From Octopus sinensis (Eukaryota), in NCBI RefSeq assembly GCF_006345805.1, contig NC_042997.1, positions 200,384,001-200,448,000 of the forward strand: DNA of 64,000 nucleotides. The letters are read 5' to 3'. This document shows positions 1,002 through 60,740 of the stretch, piece by piece. A program made the translations under genes and the position numbers. Position 1 is the stretch's first letter, and the number at the start of each line of letters is the position of its first letter. A model generated the notes under the pieces. It was not told the DNA's origin, ran no database searches, and worked only from the letters and a program-made list of their open reading frames with translations.

Positions 1002-1347
1002 TAATTTAGATGACAATTAATTCACTGCATCCTGTATATATATATATTAGCCACCGATTGCTGGCCTTTCGTGTCCAGCAGCCGTTGCGGCAAGACACAC
1101 TTTTTTGTCTCTCTGTAGCCCTAAGGCTTTCTTCTAACACCAGCTCGTAAATTTACTCGTCCTGTCGAAAAAACGCTTGTCTGTGACGTCCTGTTTTTGT
1201 TGTTATTATTATTATCATTATTGTTTTTACGTATTTTTGTATTCTTATTCGTGTAACATCGTCCGTTTTTCCGTCCTTGTTTTGTATACATTCGAGGCTT
1301 TCTTCCAAGGAATCTAATGCGCTTGGCTTGGATTTTCCTTTGGGGCT

Positions 1348-1425
1348 GGCCAGATCGGAGCAATGTCAAGATTAATCAGCCGAAATTGCGAAGATGATCC
1401 GGTTCTTGACTGAAGATTGAAGGCT
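1348..1425 (+). ncRNA. Reverse-order (pseudoknotted) hammerhead-like ribozyme, copy 1, probably inactive (G at position 17)
   Basis: GCAAT(1360-64)/ATTGC(1385-89) stem III; TCAAGA(1366-71)/TCTTGA(1404-09) stem I; GAA 1382-84; CTGAAGA 1410-16; AGCC/GGCT possible stem II after a 5-nt insert. Confidence 0.6.
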
Positions 1426-1607
1426 TCGAATGTCCCGTCCGTGTTTTTTGTATCGTTTTCTAAATGTTTCACGTTCTTGTCCCAGTTTGTATTTTTTTAC
1501 ATTTACGTATATATATATATATACATAGTTCATGTTTAGTTAAATGAAGGAAAAAGGTGGAGAGTTAAAATGATAATTATTAATTATTAAAAAATTGGTA
1601 ATCTTTA

Positions 1608-3060: not shown

Positions 3061-3294
3061 TTTACTTGTATAAAATAAGTAAATAACAGAACTAAAATAC
3101 CCAATTATGATATATATATATATATATATATATAAACCAACCCCTCAATGTTAGTTTCCTTGTCCTGTTTTTATTCTTTATGTGTACTGTATTTTTATTT
3201 GTATTGCTTTTACGTCCTATTCTTGTCACTTTTTTTTCTTTTTTTACTCCTCTGCAAAAGAATTTTATTTAATTCATTTTGCAGGAAGGACTAC

Positions 3295-3367
3295 TTCGGC
3301 CAGATCGTGTTCTGCCCTTACCTTCGAAACACGCATTGAGTCGAACCAGAGGCAGTTGATGAAGGGG
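3295..3367 (+). ncRNA. Reverse-order (pseudoknotted) hammerhead-like ribozyme, copy 2 (GUU site, C3U core)
   Basis: CGTGT(3306-10)/ACACG(3329-33) stem III; CTGCC(3312-16)/GGCAG(3351-55) stem I; GAA 3326-28; TTGATGA 3356-62; CTTC/GGGG stem II; outer helix TTCGGC/GTCGAA. Confidence 0.65.
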
Positions 3368-3488
3368 AATATTCCTTGTATTGTTTGTCTTGTACTCTGT
3401 TTTTCGTTGTTAAAAAAAGTCCGTTTCCTTGTTTGTTTTTATGTTTTCGTTTCTCGTTGTGTTCTACGTTTATTTGTGGTGTCCTGTA

Positions 3489-3539
<51 letters not shown>

Positions 3540-3678
3540 TATATATATATTATATATATATATATATAGATGTAGGTATGTACATATATGTATGTATGTA
3601 TGCATAAGTTTTATTGATAAATTGTTATTATATGACTGAACGCTCGCGTCGCTTCTTATCCTCCAAGTACGTGTTTAT

Positions 3679-3719
<41 letters not shown>

Positions 3720-4588
3720 TATATCATTGTGTAAAGACATATACATTCATAATCATTCACATATATATAAAAATCAATTTATTTCCTCTATAAGAGGACA
3801 CCTGGGTTTGTCTCTTCCATACCTTAGCTTTTCAACACCTGGCATTAACTACTTCCCCCTCTCTTAAACACTATCCCCTCCACTTATTTAAGGGTGTCTT
3901 TTTCCTGTTGTTCTCTTCTCTTGCTAGTTACTTGCCAACTTCAGTAGTGCAAGTGACATGAAATAACAGATAATGTCTCCAGTAAACGCTGTGAAATGTT
4001 TGGCATTTGGAAGGGATGGATGCCCTTCCTAAAGCCAATTACTAGAAGCCATTCCAAAGCTGACACTGAAGCTCTATGTGGCTTTGCAGCTTGTTGGATC
4101 TTGTCAAACATTTGATGATAATATATTGACATAGAGAATATACTTAACTATGAAAGATCAGAGCAAGTTTTACAAAAACAAATTTCATTGTGATTTATTG
4201 TGTAGCAAGTTGGGTTGAATGAAGCTGCCAAAGGGAATTTGAAATGTGATTTAATAGAATATTAAGAAGATAAAGCTTTAAGTAATCCATGAATGAAAAA
4301 CATTTCTTCAGAACCATCTCACCTATGCCACATTTGAGCATTATTTCATATACACCAGAGATGTGAATGTTAAAAAAAATTCTTTGAAACTTGATTTAAA
4401 TTTTTTTGTCTTGTTATCCCTTTTTTTTGTTGTTGTTGTATTTAAAAGCAGTGTTGGAAACATTTAATTCAGACAAAGTTATCTGAGTGAAAATAATGAC
4501 TTTTTGTATTGCTGTATATTTTATTAGCTTTAAAGACAATACGTAAGCCAAATAAAGATTCTATCACTACTTTTGTTCTTGTATGCAG

Positions 4589-11930: not shown

Positions 11931-12416
11931 TGTTGCAAGGATGGTGGCCGAACCAAGAAAGAAAGGTCAGGCTTGCCCGAACACCAGTCACATGGGGAGA
12001 GAGGTAGAGGCAGAGGGACAGAAGAAATAAGGAGGGGAGAGAATAAATGACAGGGAGACTGAAGTGAAAAGAGGAGGGAAAGTGAGCATGAAGAGAAGGC
12101 AATGAAATGTGAGAGAGGGGAAACGAAAGAACGAAGAGTGGAATGAATGAAGTAAGCATGAAAGGGCCGATAGAAAGAATAAAAATAGTGTCTTCTGCTA
12201 TAGCCCCGGGCCGACCAATGCCTTGTGAGTGGATTTGGTAGACGGAAACTGAAAGAAGCCTGTCGTATATATGTATATATATATATATATATATATCACA
12301 ATCAAGGAACGGCCATAATAGGCCATTCACCCACTAGAAATAACAGCCAAAAAGCTTCAACCGCAAAATAACATTAATTCCGTAACCAGGAGAAAATTAA
12401 AAAACATTTACCCTGA

Positions 12417-12523
12417 ATTCCTTATACGATGCACCGTTTCGTCACTGTTTAATGGTAAACTAACCTGATTAAATTAAATCAAGCAAAATCTACCATAGGC
12501 CCTTAGATTCATCAGTAAGGAAT
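12417..12523 (-). ncRNA. Type I hammerhead ribozyme, array unit 1
   Basis: Reverse complement of 13676-13781; predicted cleavage between 12425 and 12424. Confidence 0.8.
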
Positions 12524-12905
12524 AGCCAAATCGGAACAGATATTTTTCACGAGGCATTCTCGTCCATGCCTCGCCAATATCTGACCTAAAATTTTCAAAT
12601 CGTCGCACTCGCGCCAATTTATCGGCAGCCAAATAAATATAAGCCGCCGATTCCATTACGGAACCAACCAGAAAATTCATAATTAATCAATATAGGGAGG
12701 CAAAAAAATTTTGTAGAATTCTTTTGCCCCCAGCGGCCTAGTGGGAAAAAATTAAATAGTCATAAACCATTTTTAAGTTCAATATCACAATCAAGGAACG
12801 GCCATAATAGGCCATTCACCCACTAGAAATAACAGCCAAAAAGCTTCAACCGCAAATAACATTAATTCCGTAAACCAGGAGAAAATTAAAAAACATTTAC
12901 CCTGA

Positions 12906-13012
12906 ATTCCTTATACGATGCACCCGTTTCGTCTACTGTTTAATGGTAAACTAACCTGATTAAATTAAATCAAGCAATCTACCATAGGCCCTTAGATTCA
13001 TCAGTAAGGAAT
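12906..13012 (-). ncRNA. Type I hammerhead ribozyme, array unit 2
   Basis: As unit 1; predicted cleavage 12914/12913. Confidence 0.8.
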
Positions 13013-13394
13013 AGCCAAATCGGAACAGATATTTTTCACGAGGCATTCTCGTCCATGCCTCGCCAATATCTGACCTAAAATTTTCAAATCGTCGCACTCG
13101 CGCCAAATTTATCGGCAGCAAATAAATATAGCCGCCGATTCCATTACGGAACCAACCAGAAAATTCATGATTAATCAATATAGGGAGGCAAAAAAATTTT
13201 GTAGAATTCTTTTGCCCCCAGCGGCCTAGTGGGAAAAAATTAAATAGTCATAAACCATTTTTAAGTTCAATATCACAATCAAGGAACGGCCATAATAGGC
13301 CATTCACCCACTAGAAATAACAGCCAAAAAGCTTCAACCGCAAAATAACATTAATTCCGTAAACCAGGAGAAAATTAAAAAACATTTACCCTGA

Positions 13395-13503
13395 ATTCCT
13401 TATACGATGCACCGTTTCGTCTACTGTTTAATGGTAAACTAACCTGATTAATTAAATCAAGCCAATCTACTACCATAGGCCCTTAGATTCATCAGTAAGG
13501 AAT
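13395..13503 (-). ncRNA. Type I hammerhead ribozyme, array unit 3
   Basis: As unit 1; predicted cleavage 13403/13402. Confidence 0.8.
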
Positions 13504-13675
13504 AGCCAAATCGGAACAGATATTTTTCACGAGGCATTCCGTAATGGAATCGGCGGCTTATATTTATTTGCTGCCGATAAATTTGGCGCGAGTGCGACGA
13601 TTTGAAAATTTTAGGTCAGATATTGGCGAGGCTGGACGAGAATGCCTCGTGAAAAATATCTGTTCCAATTTGGCT

Positions 13676-34610: not shown

Positions 34611-34770
34611 TATAATATAATATGTGACAATTAGTCAGTTGCCATAATAAAACTCAGAGTTTCGGATGTTGAGCTGGAAGTCTGCTCCAGCATCTTGTCA
34701 GACTTCCGCCCCGACATCTGAAACTCTGAGTTTTATTATGGCAACCGACTAATTGTCACATATATTATAT

Positions 34771-50509: not shown

Positions 50510-50573
50510 CAAAAGGATGTGTTATAATACTATTCCACATATACAAAAACAGACATACCAACAATCTGACATA

Positions 50574-50640
50574 CTTCCATCATCAGCTGCCCCTCGGATA
50601 TCATTATGGTTTCGACACCTGGGCAGTACAATTCAATCCG
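50574..50640 (-). ncRNA. Reverse-order (pseudoknotted) hammerhead-like ribozyme, copy 3 (GUA site)
   Basis: Minus: CGGAT TGA ATTGT A CTGCCC AGGTGTC GAA ACCAT AATGAT ATCCG AG GGGCAG CTGATGA TGG; 6-bp stem I, stem III with one mismatch, outer helix CGGAT/ATCCG. Confidence 0.65.
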
Positions 50641-50774
50641 GTGGTGTCAACAGCACTAAAATATGCATTGTTTGGGAAGAAACATACCAAAGAAACCACA
50701 ACTTTCAAACACATTTACACTATGTACAACATTATTGGTAAATAAATTCAATAAGTAAATCTATAACCGACTCC

Positions 50775-50819
<45 letters not shown>

Positions 50820-52195: not shown

Positions 52196-52268
52196 GTCAG
52201 TTTAGCTTAATGGTAAAGCACTGGACGTTGTAATCACAGGGATATGAGTTCAAGTCTCGTGACTGGCG
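52196..52268 (+). pseudogene. tRNA-like pseudogene (Thr-TGT-like) between inverted repeats of about 30 bp
   Basis: Acceptor GTCAGTT/GACTGGC, D arm GCTT/AAGC, T arm ATGAG-TTCAAGT-CTCGT; anticodon arm is irregular. Confidence 0.55.
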
Positions 52269-53066: not shown

Positions 53067-54560
53067 TAGAGAAGAAATTTTAGGTGTGGAAGCAAGGTTT
53101 AGAATGGAAGGGCCTTAGAGTCAATGTTGCAAAAGCCAAAGTCCTAGTAAGTAGAAAGGCGAACAAATCACAAACTCCTTCAGGTAGATGGCCCTGCTTG
53201 ATCTGTAGAAAAGTTGTAGGTAGAAACTCCATAAGATGTACCCTGTGTAAGCTATGGGTGCATAAGAGGTGCAGCAACATCAAAGGAAGGTTAACCGGGA
53301 GGATAGTTTTTGTGTGGCAGATTCACAGGGCCAATGAACACCAAAGATGTTCAGAAAACAGGTTCCATCACATACCAGGGGGAGAAACTAGAAGTAGCTG
53401 GTAGCTTCTGCTACCTAAGTGACCAAGTCTGTTCTGAGAACATTGCCACTAGAATAAGAATAACCTGGGCAAAGTTTAGAAAGCTCCTACCTCTGCTGGT
53501 GATAAAGGGCTTCTCGCTCAGAGTGAAGGGTAGACTGTATGATGCATTTGTGCAAACTGCCATGGTACACGGCATTGAAACATGGGACATGAAGGCTGAG
53601 AACATGCGTAGGCTTGAAAGAAATGAAGCCAGTATGATCCGTTGGATGTGTAATGTCAGTGTGGACACATAACAGAGTGTAAGCAACCTGAGAGAAAAGT
53701 TGGACATAAGAAACATCAGATGTGGTGTGTAAGAGAGATGACTGCGCTGGTTTGGTCATGTGCTGCATATGGATGAGGAGAGTTGTGTGAAAAAGTGTCA
53801 CTCCCTAACAGTGGAAGGAACCTGTGGAAGACGGAGACCCAAGAAGACATGGGATGAGATGGTGAAGCACAACCTTCGAACATTGGGCCTTACAGAGGCA
53901 ATGACAAAAGACCGTGACCTCTGGAGATATGCTGTGATTGAGAAGACCCAGCAAGTAAAATGAGATCACTGCCGTAGCCTATACCAGTGTAGCATAACCA
54001 GCACATTTAAAAAGTACCCTTGAACTGTCGGGTGAAACGCCTTACTTGAGGAGACCTATTGAGTCAAGTAAAATCAAAATCACAATCAGAATCGAAATCA
54101 AAAATGGAAATTGTAGTTGTGACTGATGCCAGTGCCGCCTGACTGGCTCCCGTGCTGGTGGCATGCAATAAGCACCATTCATGCGTGGGTCGATGCCAGT
54201 GCTGGCTGACTAGCTCCCCGTGCTGGTGGCATGTAAAAAGCACCATCTGAACGTGGTCGATGTCAGCCCCCCACCTCGTCTGGATCTTGTGCTGGTGGCA
54301 CATAAAAAACACCATCCAAACCTGACCAATTCCAGTGCTGCCTGACTAGCTCCCGTGCATGTAAAAAGCATGTAAAAAGCACCCACTACACTCTCGGAGT
54401 GGATGGCGTTAGGAAGGGCATCCAGCTGTAGAAACCTTGCCAGATCAGATTGAAACCGGGTGCAGCCATCTGGATTGCCAGTCCCCAGTCAAATCATACA
54501 ACCCACGTCAGCATGGAAAACGGATGTTAAACGATGATGATGATGATGATGATGATGATA
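53067..54560 (+). mobile_element. 5'-truncated RTE-type LINE: frameshifted ORF2 C-terminus (to 53963), repetitive 3' UTR, (GAT)n tail
   Basis: GLRVNVAKAKVL, Cys/His finger WPCLICRK..CTLCKLWVHKRC, SFCYL, KGRLYDAFVQTAMVHGIETW, RWFGHVLHM, RRRPKKTW. Confidence 0.92.
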
Positions 54561-54561
54561 A

Positions 54562-54960
54562 TGTGAAAGCCTGTCCAATTTTTGTTCTAATGGATCTACC
54601 AGTATGCATGTATTGACACATTCCATATCCTTTATCATTGCACTTGGATACTGTCAATGTTTTATCCTGTTTGTTTGTTCATGTTGAATTTTACTATTTT
54701 GTTTATAGTTTCTTTAGATGATGTGGTTGCCTTTTCCTTGAGATAAATATTTGATTAGTTATTATGTTTTTTAAGTTTTCACTTTGTTTCATAACAGACA
54801 AATTTGTTTTGATGATGTTAAAAATGCTTTGGTGATGCGGATTGTATGTTACTAGAAATGGTAGTGTATTCCGTTGATGGGTTTGTCTTTCTCGTGTTTC
54901 CAAAAGTTGTTCTCTAGGAATCTCTTTTGCTCGTTGAATGCTACTTTCTTCAAATTCAGA
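54562..54960 (-). pseudogene. Penelope-like element (Neptune-type) ORF remnant, linker between RT and GIY-YIG
   Basis: IQRAKEIPREQLL..LPFLVTYNPHH..IFNIIK..RQPHHLKKL, then in frame past stops VSKCNDKGYGMCQYMHTGRSI (decayed Cys motif). Confidence 0.75.
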
Positions 54961-55102
54961 AAAGAAATGTATGTATGTATGTATGTATGTATGTATGTAT
55001 GTATGTATGTATGTATGTAGTATGTATGTATGTATGTATGTATGCATGTATGCATGTATGCATGTATGCATGTATGCATGTATGTATACATACATACATA
55101 TA

Positions 55103-55135
<33 letters not shown>

Positions 55136-55138
55136 TCA

Positions 55139-56405
55139 CAGGGGTTGGACAAAATAAAGGAAACGCTTTAAAATTTCAAACAAATTTATTTTAATATGGG
55201 GTAGGACCACCTTTCACAGTAATTACAGCTTGAATTCTATGAGGTATGACTCGTACAGAGTTTTAATTCTTTCCAAAGGAAGTTTTGTCCGTTCTTCAGC
55301 TAAAACAGTCTCCAGTTCTTGTAGTGATGATAGTAGAGGATATTGATACCTTACTTGTTTTTCTGAAATGCATCATAAATGTTCAATAATAACAAGATCT
55401 GGGGACTGTAGTGGCCAGATAAGACATTCAACTTCACTAGAATGTTCCTCGTGCCATTCAGTAACAACTTTAGCTGTGTGAATTGGTGCATTATCATCCT
55501 GAAAGATTGTATTTCCCTCCGGAAACCATAGGATGAATTTGATGAGATAAAATACTTAAATAATCTTGACTATTAATTATTCCATGAAGGGAAACCAATT
55601 GGGCCGGCGGATTTCCAAGATATAGCCCCCCCCCCCCAGATCATCACAGATCCTCCTCCATGGTTAACAGTTGGAAGAATGCAGTCTGGGCCAGATGCAT
55701 CTTTTTGCTATCTCCACACGTATACTCGGCTGGTGGTCGGAAATAAAGTTAAGGATGACTCGTCCAAGAAAATAACGTTCTTCCACTGCTTTAGGGACCA
55801 ATTCTGTAGGTTTTTACTCCACTCTAAATGCTTTACAACGTTTGTTTTTGAAATTAGTGGTTTTCTGATTGCAGCCCTCCCATGAAATCCGGCTTTGTGC
55901 AGCTCCTGGCAAACAGTTTTTGAGGAAACTGGGTTCTCAAGGTGGTCATTAATTTCTGCAGTAATTTTGGGAGCTGTACTTATGTGATCCTTTCTAACAA
56001 TTTGCATAAGAGTCCGACGGTCCCTATCTGAAAGTTTTGGTTTCCTTCCGGAGTTTTCTTTCGATGAGGAGGTTTTCCCCTCTTTCTCAAAGGCTGTCAT
56101 TACTTTCGAGACAGTACTTCTTGTCGCATCAAACATTTTGGATGTTTTTGTTACACTAGTACCGGCCATTCGAGCACCAACAATTTGACCTCATTGAAAG
56201 TCCAATAGATCTGTCATTTTAATGAATTTTAATTAGCTGTTTCCGATGATATCTAAAAAGAAATGGCAATTTTAGCAAAACGTACTAAGCAACACTAATA
56301 ATGGAAAAAAAATAAATAAATAAACAAGCTTTTGATGGTTTTAAAGATATTTCAAAATTATGATGCTATGATGCTAGGTGCTTCCATTATGTTGTCCAGC
56401 CACTG
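55139..56405 (-). mobile_element. Tc1-family DNA transposon, full length but decayed
   Basis: TIRs CAG(G/T)GG(T/C)TGGACAA(A/C)ATAA(A/T)GGAA at 55139 and 56405; encloses a transposase pseudogene. Confidence 0.92.
55191..56217 (-). pseudogene. Tc1 transposase pseudogene
   Basis: MTDLLDFQ*GQIVGARMAG...SGRKPKLSDRDRR...GRAAIRKPLIS...WKNVIFLDES...FQDDNAPIH...WPLQSPDL...GGPTPY*; contains stops and frameshifts. Confidence 0.92.
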
Positions 56406-59259: not shown

Positions 59260-59837
59260 GTTTAACATCCGCTTTCCATGGGTTGGACAATTTTGACCGA
59301 GGGCTGGCGAACCAGATGGCTGCACCAGGCTCCAATCTTGATCTGGCAGAGATTCTACAGCTGGATGGTCTTCCTATCGCCAACCACTCTGAGAGTGTAG
59401 TGGGTGCTGTTTACGTGCCACCGGCACTGGGGCCAGTCAGGCGGTACTGGCAACGACCTTGCTCGAATCTTTTTACACATGCCATCAGCACAGGTGCCAG
59501 TAAGGCGACGTTGGTAACGATCACGCTCGAATGGTGCCCTTTTTTCGTGCCACGGATATGGAAGCCAGTTGGCTGCTCTGGCAACGATCACGCTTGAATG
59601 ATGCTCTTAGCACCCTACTAGCATGGGCGCAAGTGCTAGTAAGGCGACGCTGGTAGTAGGGCGACGCTAAAAATTTCTTTTCCCTCCACTTTATTGTATA
59701 GCTGAAAGGTGTTCTGCCGTACATGTATAATTCTAGCTTTCTTGTTTTTCTTTCTATTCCTGTTTTCGTTCTTGTATACATTCATCTGCCTCTTTCCCAG
59801 AGGCTTAATGCTTTTAGGTTAAGTCCCTGCACCCGCC

Positions 59838-59905
59838 GAACTTGAGTAGTACCAGAGATAAAGGAGCGAAACTACCAGCAGTTTCTGGACTCTGACTGAT
59901 GAGCT
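59838..59905 (+). ncRNA. Reverse-order (pseudoknotted) hammerhead-like ribozyme, copy 4 (GUA site, fully canonical core)
   Basis: GTAGT(59846-50)/ACTAC(59871-75) stem III; A17 at 59851; CCAGAG/CTCTGA stem I; AGC(59865-67)-GAA; CTGATGA(59896-902)-GCT stem II with G10.1-C11.1. Confidence 0.75.
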
Positions 59906-60512
59906 AATCAGCTGCAAATGATCCATGTATCTTGTTTTTGTACTGTTTGCCATTTGTTGTGCTGTCGTCCATTTTCCCGCATGTCGTGTTTTGTTGGTTT
60001 CCGTTTGTGCTTACCTTACGGTAGGTGTGCATCTAAATTTTATACAGCTCTTACTCTATCTTTTATTCCCCCTCTCATTTTTCTTCCTTTTTCTCGCTCC
60101 CCCTCTCTCACATTTCTTAGCCTTTCTTTCTTTAACTCCCACTATTTCCCACTTGTTTATCTCCTCTGCATCTTTCTCTTTGTCTCTGATTTTTGTCTAA
60201 TCCTTCAATCACGCTACCCCCTACCCATCTCTCCTTCTTTCTTGGCCTGACTACCAACCGCCAACACCTCTCATGTCCATCTCCTAAGTTCCTGCCTTTA
60301 GGCTTTCACTTTATACACGCCAGCCCATTTTGATGTGTTCTCAGTAGAAAGATGCATGTTGTTATTTCTTGTTGTTTGTATTCGTAATTGTGTACCATGT
60401 TCTCCGTTTCTTTTTTGTTTGTTTGTTTTGTTTGTCTTTGTAGCCATACACATTCGCTAGCTTTCTTACAAAAGGGCTCTAATGGTCTTAACTTAGACTG
60501 TTTTGGGAGCAA

Positions 60513-60585
60513 CCAGATCGAACCATCTCAAGTGTATCTGCCGAAATGGTCGTGACTCCTGGGACTTGACTGAGGAAAGAAAGCC
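60513..60585 (+). ncRNA. Reverse-order (pseudoknotted) hammerhead-like ribozyme, copy 5 (AUC site)
   Basis: ACCAT(60522-26)/ATGGT(60546-50) stem III; C17 at 60527; TCAAGT/ACTTGA stem I; GAA 60543-45; CTGAGGA 60570-76; stem II weak. Confidence 0.65.
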
Positions 60586-60740
60586 TGTCCTTCTAATTGT
60601 TGATCTTCTTGTCCGCCTTTGTATCGTCTATCTGTCCGAATATTTTAATGCCCTCTATTGCGTATTTTTCCATGCTTTCTGATGGAATCCTTTTCTGTAG
60701 AGAAAGGGACTTCATTCTATATTGTTAGTATATATATATA

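Follow-up and report, generated by a model that had tools for sequence, protein, structure and literature searches.

In the 64,000-nucleotide stretch of Octopus sinensis DNA analysed here (the window), positions 3247-3367 are probably a worn, mutated copy of a hammerhead-type ribozyme, which has its strands in a knotted order and is predicted to be self-cleaving. Judged from its sequence, the motif is apparently an undescribed hammerhead variant, real and conserved, residing in a probably disabled copy. A four-way junction very probably opens the hammerhead core, separating A9 from G10.1; its predicted strands are given in Table 1. The start of the motif, placed at 3295 in an earlier note on this DNA, lies at 3247.

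Table 1. Elements of the ribozyme copy, its host repeat and related regions of the window.
Feature	Positions	Strand	Remark
Sister family 1 ribozyme region	1260..1450	+	same wiring
(TA)n tract, 5' junction	3110..3134	.	likely insertion target
5'-truncated family-2 copy	3142..3680	+	3' 350 nt of unit (3142-3492), (TA)n spacer, ~130 nt of next unit (3552-3680)
Added helix P4, 5' strand CTCCT	3247..3251	+	family CCCCT; predicted partner 3363-3367
Added hairpin P5	3252..3284	+	CTGCAAAA 3252-3259 / TTTTGCAG 3277-3284; flush with P4 and helix II
Helix II, 5' strand GAAGG	3285..3289	+	G10.1 = 3285; predicted partner 3321-3325
Helix III extension, 5' strand	3291..3305	+	predicted partner 3334-3349; duplex on family majority
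Block S: helix III strand CGTGT, helix I strand CTGCC(C)	3306..3317	+	predicted cleavage 3' of T3311 (GUU triplet)
Block G: helix II 3' strand CCTTC, GAA, helix III strand ACACG	3321..3333	+
Helix III extension, 3' strand	3334..3349	+	leads into helix I
Helix I strand GGCAG and core TTGATGA	3350..3362	+
P4, 3' strand AGGGG	3363..3367	+	"extra A" and the helix II strand of the earlier note
(TA)n tract, 3' junction	3679..3724	.
Sister family 3: Naiad retroelement 3' end	50512..50778	-	same ribozyme wiring
Sister family 4 ribozyme region	59751..59940	+
Sister family 5 ribozyme region	60421..60615	+

All the block letters quoted in the earlier note were found in place in the window copy, which reads CGTGT (3306-3310), T3311 and CTGCC (3312-3316), then CTTC (3322-3325), GAA (3326-3328) and ACACG (3329-3333), and, after a 17-nt linker, GGCAG (3351-3355), TTGATGA (3356-3362), A3363 and GGGG (3364-3367). 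A descriptor allowing the three hammerhead blocks in any order recovered this copy as S (site)-G (GAAA)-C (CUGAnGA). The strict pattern gave two matches in the window and none in each of 40 dinucleotide shuffles. Over 773 kb, comprising the window and 170 loci enriched for these families, all 49 strict matches were in the order S-G-C, and the other five orders and the reversed control gave none, which bears out the proposed hammerhead core with a non-circularly permuted strand order. A looser scan of the window gave seven candidates, five of which have equal spacing, with cleavage bases at +1365, +3311, -50627, +59851 and +60527. No hammerhead was present among the 150 matches listed of 159 in an Rfam scan of the window, nearly all of which were microsatellite noise.

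The motif occurs in eight repeat families, of which family 2 hosts the window copy. The core letters (CUGAnGA, GAAA, UH) are found in all eight family sequences and in 39 of 48 family-2 copies, and no family majority has a cleavage triplet ending in G. The core pairs of helices I and III are Watson-Crick in 70 of 70 cells across seven family majority sequences, with two to four pair types at nine of the ten positions, where P1/P3 pairing itself formed part of how the families were found. The observation that the stems of the window copies differ and nevertheless pair is upheld as covariation across copies and families.

These results bear on whether the motif might be chance complementarity in a repeat, spread by transposition, which we regard as hardly credible. 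Copies within one family are not independent of each other, and the nested fold is not unusual: the minimum-energy fold of 3288-3380, which leaves out P4/P5 and cannot draw pseudoknots, is unremarkable (z 0.35). Against chance stand the zero matches in the shuffled and reversed controls, the confinement to one of six orders, the different stems of the eight families, and the tails of Naiad retroelements from cnidarians, a crustacean and others, which, in the published consensus ends viewed, are wired alike by eye. The covariation between families already refutes the chance reading, unless the majority sequences are artefacts.

The window copy itself departs from the core at C3, where it carries T3356. 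The earlier suspicion that C3 is damaged was confirmed: U3 is attributed to damage because C is kept at this position in 46 of 48 distinct family-2 copies, and contigs from four public runs, which carry the labels of four organisms, also have C at 3356 almost throughout. The defects of single window copies disappear in the family majority sequences. A3350 is G in family 2. Every helix and the core are intact in only 12 of the 48 copies. The exact leader CCAGATCG, described in the earlier note as shared with copies 1 and 5, is not the majority form of the family, which is CCGGATCG. A C3U change lowers hammerhead activity strongly, and the window copy, which carries it and is lone and truncated, is likely to be nearly inactive.

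The largest revision concerns helix II. The earlier note paired GGGG with CTTC and described all the stems as perfect; this holds for helices I and III, which are Watson-Crick, and not for GGGG/CTTC, which contains two G-U pairs. Helices I, II and III abut the core with G10.1-C11.1 and A15.1-U16.1 once an upstream strand is taken to complete helix II. This strand lies 20-29 nt 5' of the cleavage base in all seven family majority sequences and was not part of the search pattern. The upstream helix II has 5-6 bp with G-C as its first pair in all seven, in five unrelated sequences. Pairing of GAAGG with CCTTC, which the earlier note feared would sequester the core, is indeed predicted to form; however, it uses a second GAAGG at 3285-3289 and makes helix II instead of sequestering the core.

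An alternative is a plain type-SGC hammerhead, in which GGGG/CTTC with a bulged A is helix II and the upstream hairpin is irrelevant. The block order and the short linker between helix I and helix II match type SGC, and four pairs, two of them G-U, are formally possible in families 2, 6 and 7; in families 1, 3, 4 and 5, only 1-2 bp can be formed. In family 2, the calculated duplex energy is 0.0 kcal/mol for GGGG/CTTC compared with -4.6 kcal/mol for the upstream GAAGG/CCTTC, and none of the four pairs covaries (0/4), whereas the same G run covaries with the strand at 3247-3251. A simply minimal helix II was also considered and was dropped once the upstream strand was found to pair over 5-6 bp in all seven families. 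An unpaired base 5' of stem II, the place of the "extra A", has been reported for Penelope hammerheads (PMC4209133). Here, A3363 is predicted to be paired, as the first pair of P4, and this T-A pair is replaced by G-C in family 8. Overall, the plain type-SGC reading is very improbable.

The opened core with the upstream helix II is supported by the arrangement as a whole. The four-way arrangement of P4, P5, helix II and the core was found in all eight families, six of which have no unpaired linker. Its score was reached by 2, 0, 11, 22, 1, 0, 0 and 0 of 200 shuffles of the upstream DNA in families 1 to 8, respectively, and by 0 of 200 for the window copy. Families 3 and 4 therefore score weakly (11/200 and 22/200), and helix II of family 4 contains a mismatch. 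When seven copies from four related families were aligned, 97.8% of the cells paired, and the value dropped to 40-51% in slid controls. Two-sided changes affect 10 of the 26 pairs in this alignment (4.8 on average in shuffles; matched by 0 of 500 shuffles), a test that is inflated by the relatedness of the aligned copies. Helix II is invariant within the alignment, and its covariation comes from the comparison between families.

The site between A9 and G10.1 is a metal-binding spot of the hammerhead, and we know of no precedent for helices inserted there. The core geometry could be kept intact by mutual stacking of P4 and P5 and by stacking of helix II onto the core. The extended helix III would bend back and may thereby bring the distal ends of helices I, II and III together in a second junction that would take the place of the contact between loop I and loop II. 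The helix III extension between leader and linker is by itself not significant, with 3-44% of shuffles as good per family (11% in family 2). Its joint has NNN-GA opposite GA, which is the k-turn consensus, in families 1, 3, 4 and 5 and not in families 2, 6 and 7.

The motif shares with type-SGC hammerheads (HRIMA-1 and variants; Eckert et al. 2023, PMC10085705) the core letters, the order site-GAAA-CUGAnGA and the mutually crossing helices I, II and III; also found is the short linker from the helix I strand to the helix II strand that characterizes the type (3-4 nt in family 2). It differs in that block C, which Eckert et al. took to be uninterruptible around CUGAnGA and which is uninterrupted by definition in type SGC, is split: the downstream helix II is weak or absent, and the upstream strand fits in all eight families. 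The type-SGC helix "I", which joins the free sides of stems I and II, is absent, and these sides enter the helix III extension instead. By its core and predicted helices, the motif is therefore of the hammerhead class and, because block C is split, not type SGC as defined. The present wiring could be derived from type SGC by closing it into a ring and reopening it inside P4. Type SGC is reported from metatranscriptomes, cleaves at 0.007-0.19 per minute in vitro and was found in no known organism's genome. In the full texts searched, no paper describes hammerheads that are permuted or core-opened in Naiads or in repeats of animals.

The T-rich block at 3135-3490 in which the earlier note placed the motif is present, but it is really the 5'-truncated end of a longer repeat unit reaching ~3680; the Penelope-type (TA)n context noted for 3295..3367 was confirmed. 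For this block, 2,960 first-look candidates were found in the genome, and the 40 that were scored have 92-97% identity. Mapping of 60 loci, in two overlapping sets, gave a unit of 768 nt and a TA spacer, and no copy extends into an open reading frame. The copies are 5'-truncated and run on into 85-130 nt of the next unit; an inverted piece or a partial copy of their own 3' end often precedes them. Tandems are partial, with two sites in a few loci, and in at least five loci the partial unit upstream continues past the predicted cut site; tandem 5' ends stopping at the cut site, as had been predicted, were not found in family 2. Contigs of public runs that we guess to be RNA cover parts of the unit and show no ends, strand or level. 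As judged from its genomic copies, the host is a non-coding, retrozyme-like tandem repeat of ~780 nt that targets TA.

Among the sister families, the window copy of family 1 has G at the cleavage position, where 15 of 16 aligned copies have C or T. Families 6 (L107/L105/L108), 7 (L099) and 8 (L086, L251-L295) are related repeats that share the wiring and show compensatory changes. Of these, family 8 is very young: among 40 scored matches, 22 (the query included) are identical over 281 nt. Identical copies lie on many contigs, and the family looks currently active. Its monomer is 838 nt without a meaningful open reading frame, and two or three ribozymes (dimers, trimers) are found in 20 of 33 loci. 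The 3' end lies at monomer position 256-260 in 30 of 33 loci and is followed by (TA)n, and the 5' ends are scattered, with 2 of 33 copies beginning at the cut site (monomer position 5).

Family 3 connects the motif with Naiads. By eye, the region at 50512-50778 (-) agrees with the 3' end of the published octopus Naiad consensus (Craig et al. 2021 supplement, PMC8557442). Family 3 lies downstream of a Naiad-like reverse transcriptase (RT) in 11 of 30 RT loci of the genome (10 near-full, 1 partial), and CxC and DKA-type motifs occur upstream of it in some decayed RT copies; GIY-YIG was not found by pattern search in 8 stretches. No intact Naiad open reading frame was found among 150 scored of 2,364 candidates, the longest frame among close matches being 320 aa. 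Craig et al. state that Naiads lack canonical hammerheads and mark some of them "HHR_core/half_core".

The last 420-450 nt of 46 of these consensus records (places 116-161 of 208) were read by eye, with names assigned from record order. Permuted hammerheads are readable in 18 of the 46 tails. Ten, including those of cnidarians and a crustacean, show the core-opened wiring, fully readable in 3_Chem, Amil, Aacu, Anas, 2_Movir, EuTe, Obim and Ovul, with P4/P5 out of view in Plae and with an imperfect helix II and P4 in Esco. Two spider records show S-G-C with helices I and III only, and six nematode records show a C-S-G hammerhead in which the core is intact and a I-II helix is added (clean in Naiad-1/-2/-3_Nbra, Hcon, Hpol and Asuum). 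Type CSG was known to Eckert et al. (PMC10085705) from two metagenome sequences only. The remaining 28 tails have no readable or resolved hammerhead in the portion viewed. In bivalve, hemichordate and some cnidarian ends among the tails viewed without a visible hammerhead, a different motif, conserved and rich in GC, lies close to the 3' end; it could be another structured RNA.

The family-2 unit has no sequence match to the Naiad tails, the one match being a nested family-2 piece; it shares with them the design and the helix I sequence, so its tie to Naiads is, at the level of predicted structure, architectural. With Naiads, family 2 also shares (TA)n targeting, 5' truncation, partial tandems, inverted copies and a 3' tail (PMC8557442), of which the (TA)n bias, the truncation and the partial tandem or inverted copies are common to other Penelope clades and hence not diagnostic. 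Unlike Naiads, which encode an N-terminal GIY-YIG, CxC and RT, family 2 encodes no protein. The ribozyme of the repeat may have derived from Naiad 3' tails.

The host also resembles metazoan non-LTR retrozymes (Cervera and de la Pena 2020, PMC7229834), which are likewise non-coding, low-GC head-to-tail monomers with one hammerhead and for which Penelope dependence has also been proposed, and its 770-840 nt units fall within the 51-972 bp retrozyme range (Li et al., bioRxiv 10.64898/2026.07.22.740005). Retrozymes carry type I hammerheads, whereas none of type I was found in the present families, and circular RNA has been shown for retrozymes, while the present repeats are known from genomic sequence. 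Penelope hammerheads have the same location near the element 3' end and have likewise been proposed to help make circular templates that are copied over more than one unit; they differ in having the classical order and a tiny helix III and in acting as dimers (PMC4209133). The long helix III of the present motif looks monomer-competent.

In the proposed cycle, the ribozyme would cut tandem repeat transcripts into monomers, which a Penelope-type enzyme would then copy. Cleavage 3' of the T3311-equivalent would release monomers, which may circularize and be copied for more than one round, giving head-to-tail copies. Intact family members quite probably cleave, and a circular RNA intermediate is somewhat favoured. 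Because family-2 units cross the cut site, the template does not appear to have been a simple cut linear monomer; the family-8 ends together with the family-2 read-through fit a circular or uncut tandem RNA template, as has been proposed for Penelope hammerheads (PMC4209133).

The same read-through enters into another reading, that the conserved fold is real and cuts negligibly or not at all, serving as a structural signal such as a binding or priming element for a Penelope-type protein. The interruption at A9-G10.1, the genomic copies reading through the site, the often weak activity of Penelope hammerheads (PMC4209133) and the 28 of 46 viewed Naiad ends without a readable hammerhead are in its favour. 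However, circular or uncut templates would likewise give read-through, and eight families with changed stems all preserve the letters of the catalytic core and a cleavage base other than G. A non-cutting fold is thus unlikely, though it deserves more weight than the other two alternatives, and cleavage is preferred. Taken jointly, the data lean slightly towards an active core-opened hammerhead being the "missing" Naiad ribozyme in several animal phyla, with nematode Naiads using CSG and with derived retrozymes still spreading through circular RNAs after their Naiad parent died.

As for the enzyme, Neptune-like open reading frames of 775-782 aa are intact in the genome, while the Naiad RT copies have decayed; the clade name rests on the CxxxxCxxC linker (Craig et al. 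2021, PMC8557442). A Neptune-type element is our guess for the present copying enzyme because only those were found intact, and this guess may just as well be wrong as right. In 2 of 30 GIY-YIG loci, a Neptune-like frame is followed at 1.0-1.1 kb by a sister ribozyme. Neptune as direct parent was rejected: the junction is not spanned by any further copy, and the ribozyme was found in 0 of the 16 remaining long-ORF loci, where two loose matches were judged to be chance. The two adjacencies are adjacent insertions or template jumps between separate elements. Direct junctions without TA were seen at L052 (G000:C18), where a Neptune 3' end is joined to a truncated family 6, and at L272, where an apparent family-1 3' end is joined to a truncated family 8; both are possible template jumps. 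In L061-L110, a minimal type I hammerhead-like motif lies ~815-975 nt past the Neptune-like stop codon, in the 3' UTR of intact elements; its helix III is palindromic, and U3:A8 takes the place of C3:G8.

If the proposed reading is true, non-circularly permuted ribozymes move from rare environmental RNAs to thousands of animal-genome copies, the hammerhead core tolerates opening by a helical junction, contrary to the assumption behind published searches, and the claim that Naiads spread without canonical-type hammerheads is overturned. The family of identical copies provides an unmutated substrate and a route into how Penelope enzymes copy ribozyme RNAs, and a 120-nt transcript, which carries the whole predicted motif, is sufficient for a test.

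Several other features were observed in the window. A 489-bp tandem unit, in 2.5 copies that are 97% alike, occupies 12293-13539, and pattern search gave no type I hammerhead core in it. Stop-free frames lie at 55711-56190 (-), 54706-55167 (-) and 53307-53669 (+), which by eye resemble, respectively, a fragment of a Tc1/mariner transposase, part of a Neptune-like RT-EN linker and the tail of a LINE RT. The segment at 52196-52268 (+), with an Rfam tRNA match of 41.6 bits and no ARAGORN call, is perhaps a SINE head. A long near-perfect inverted repeat of ~100 nt is present at 34641-34742.
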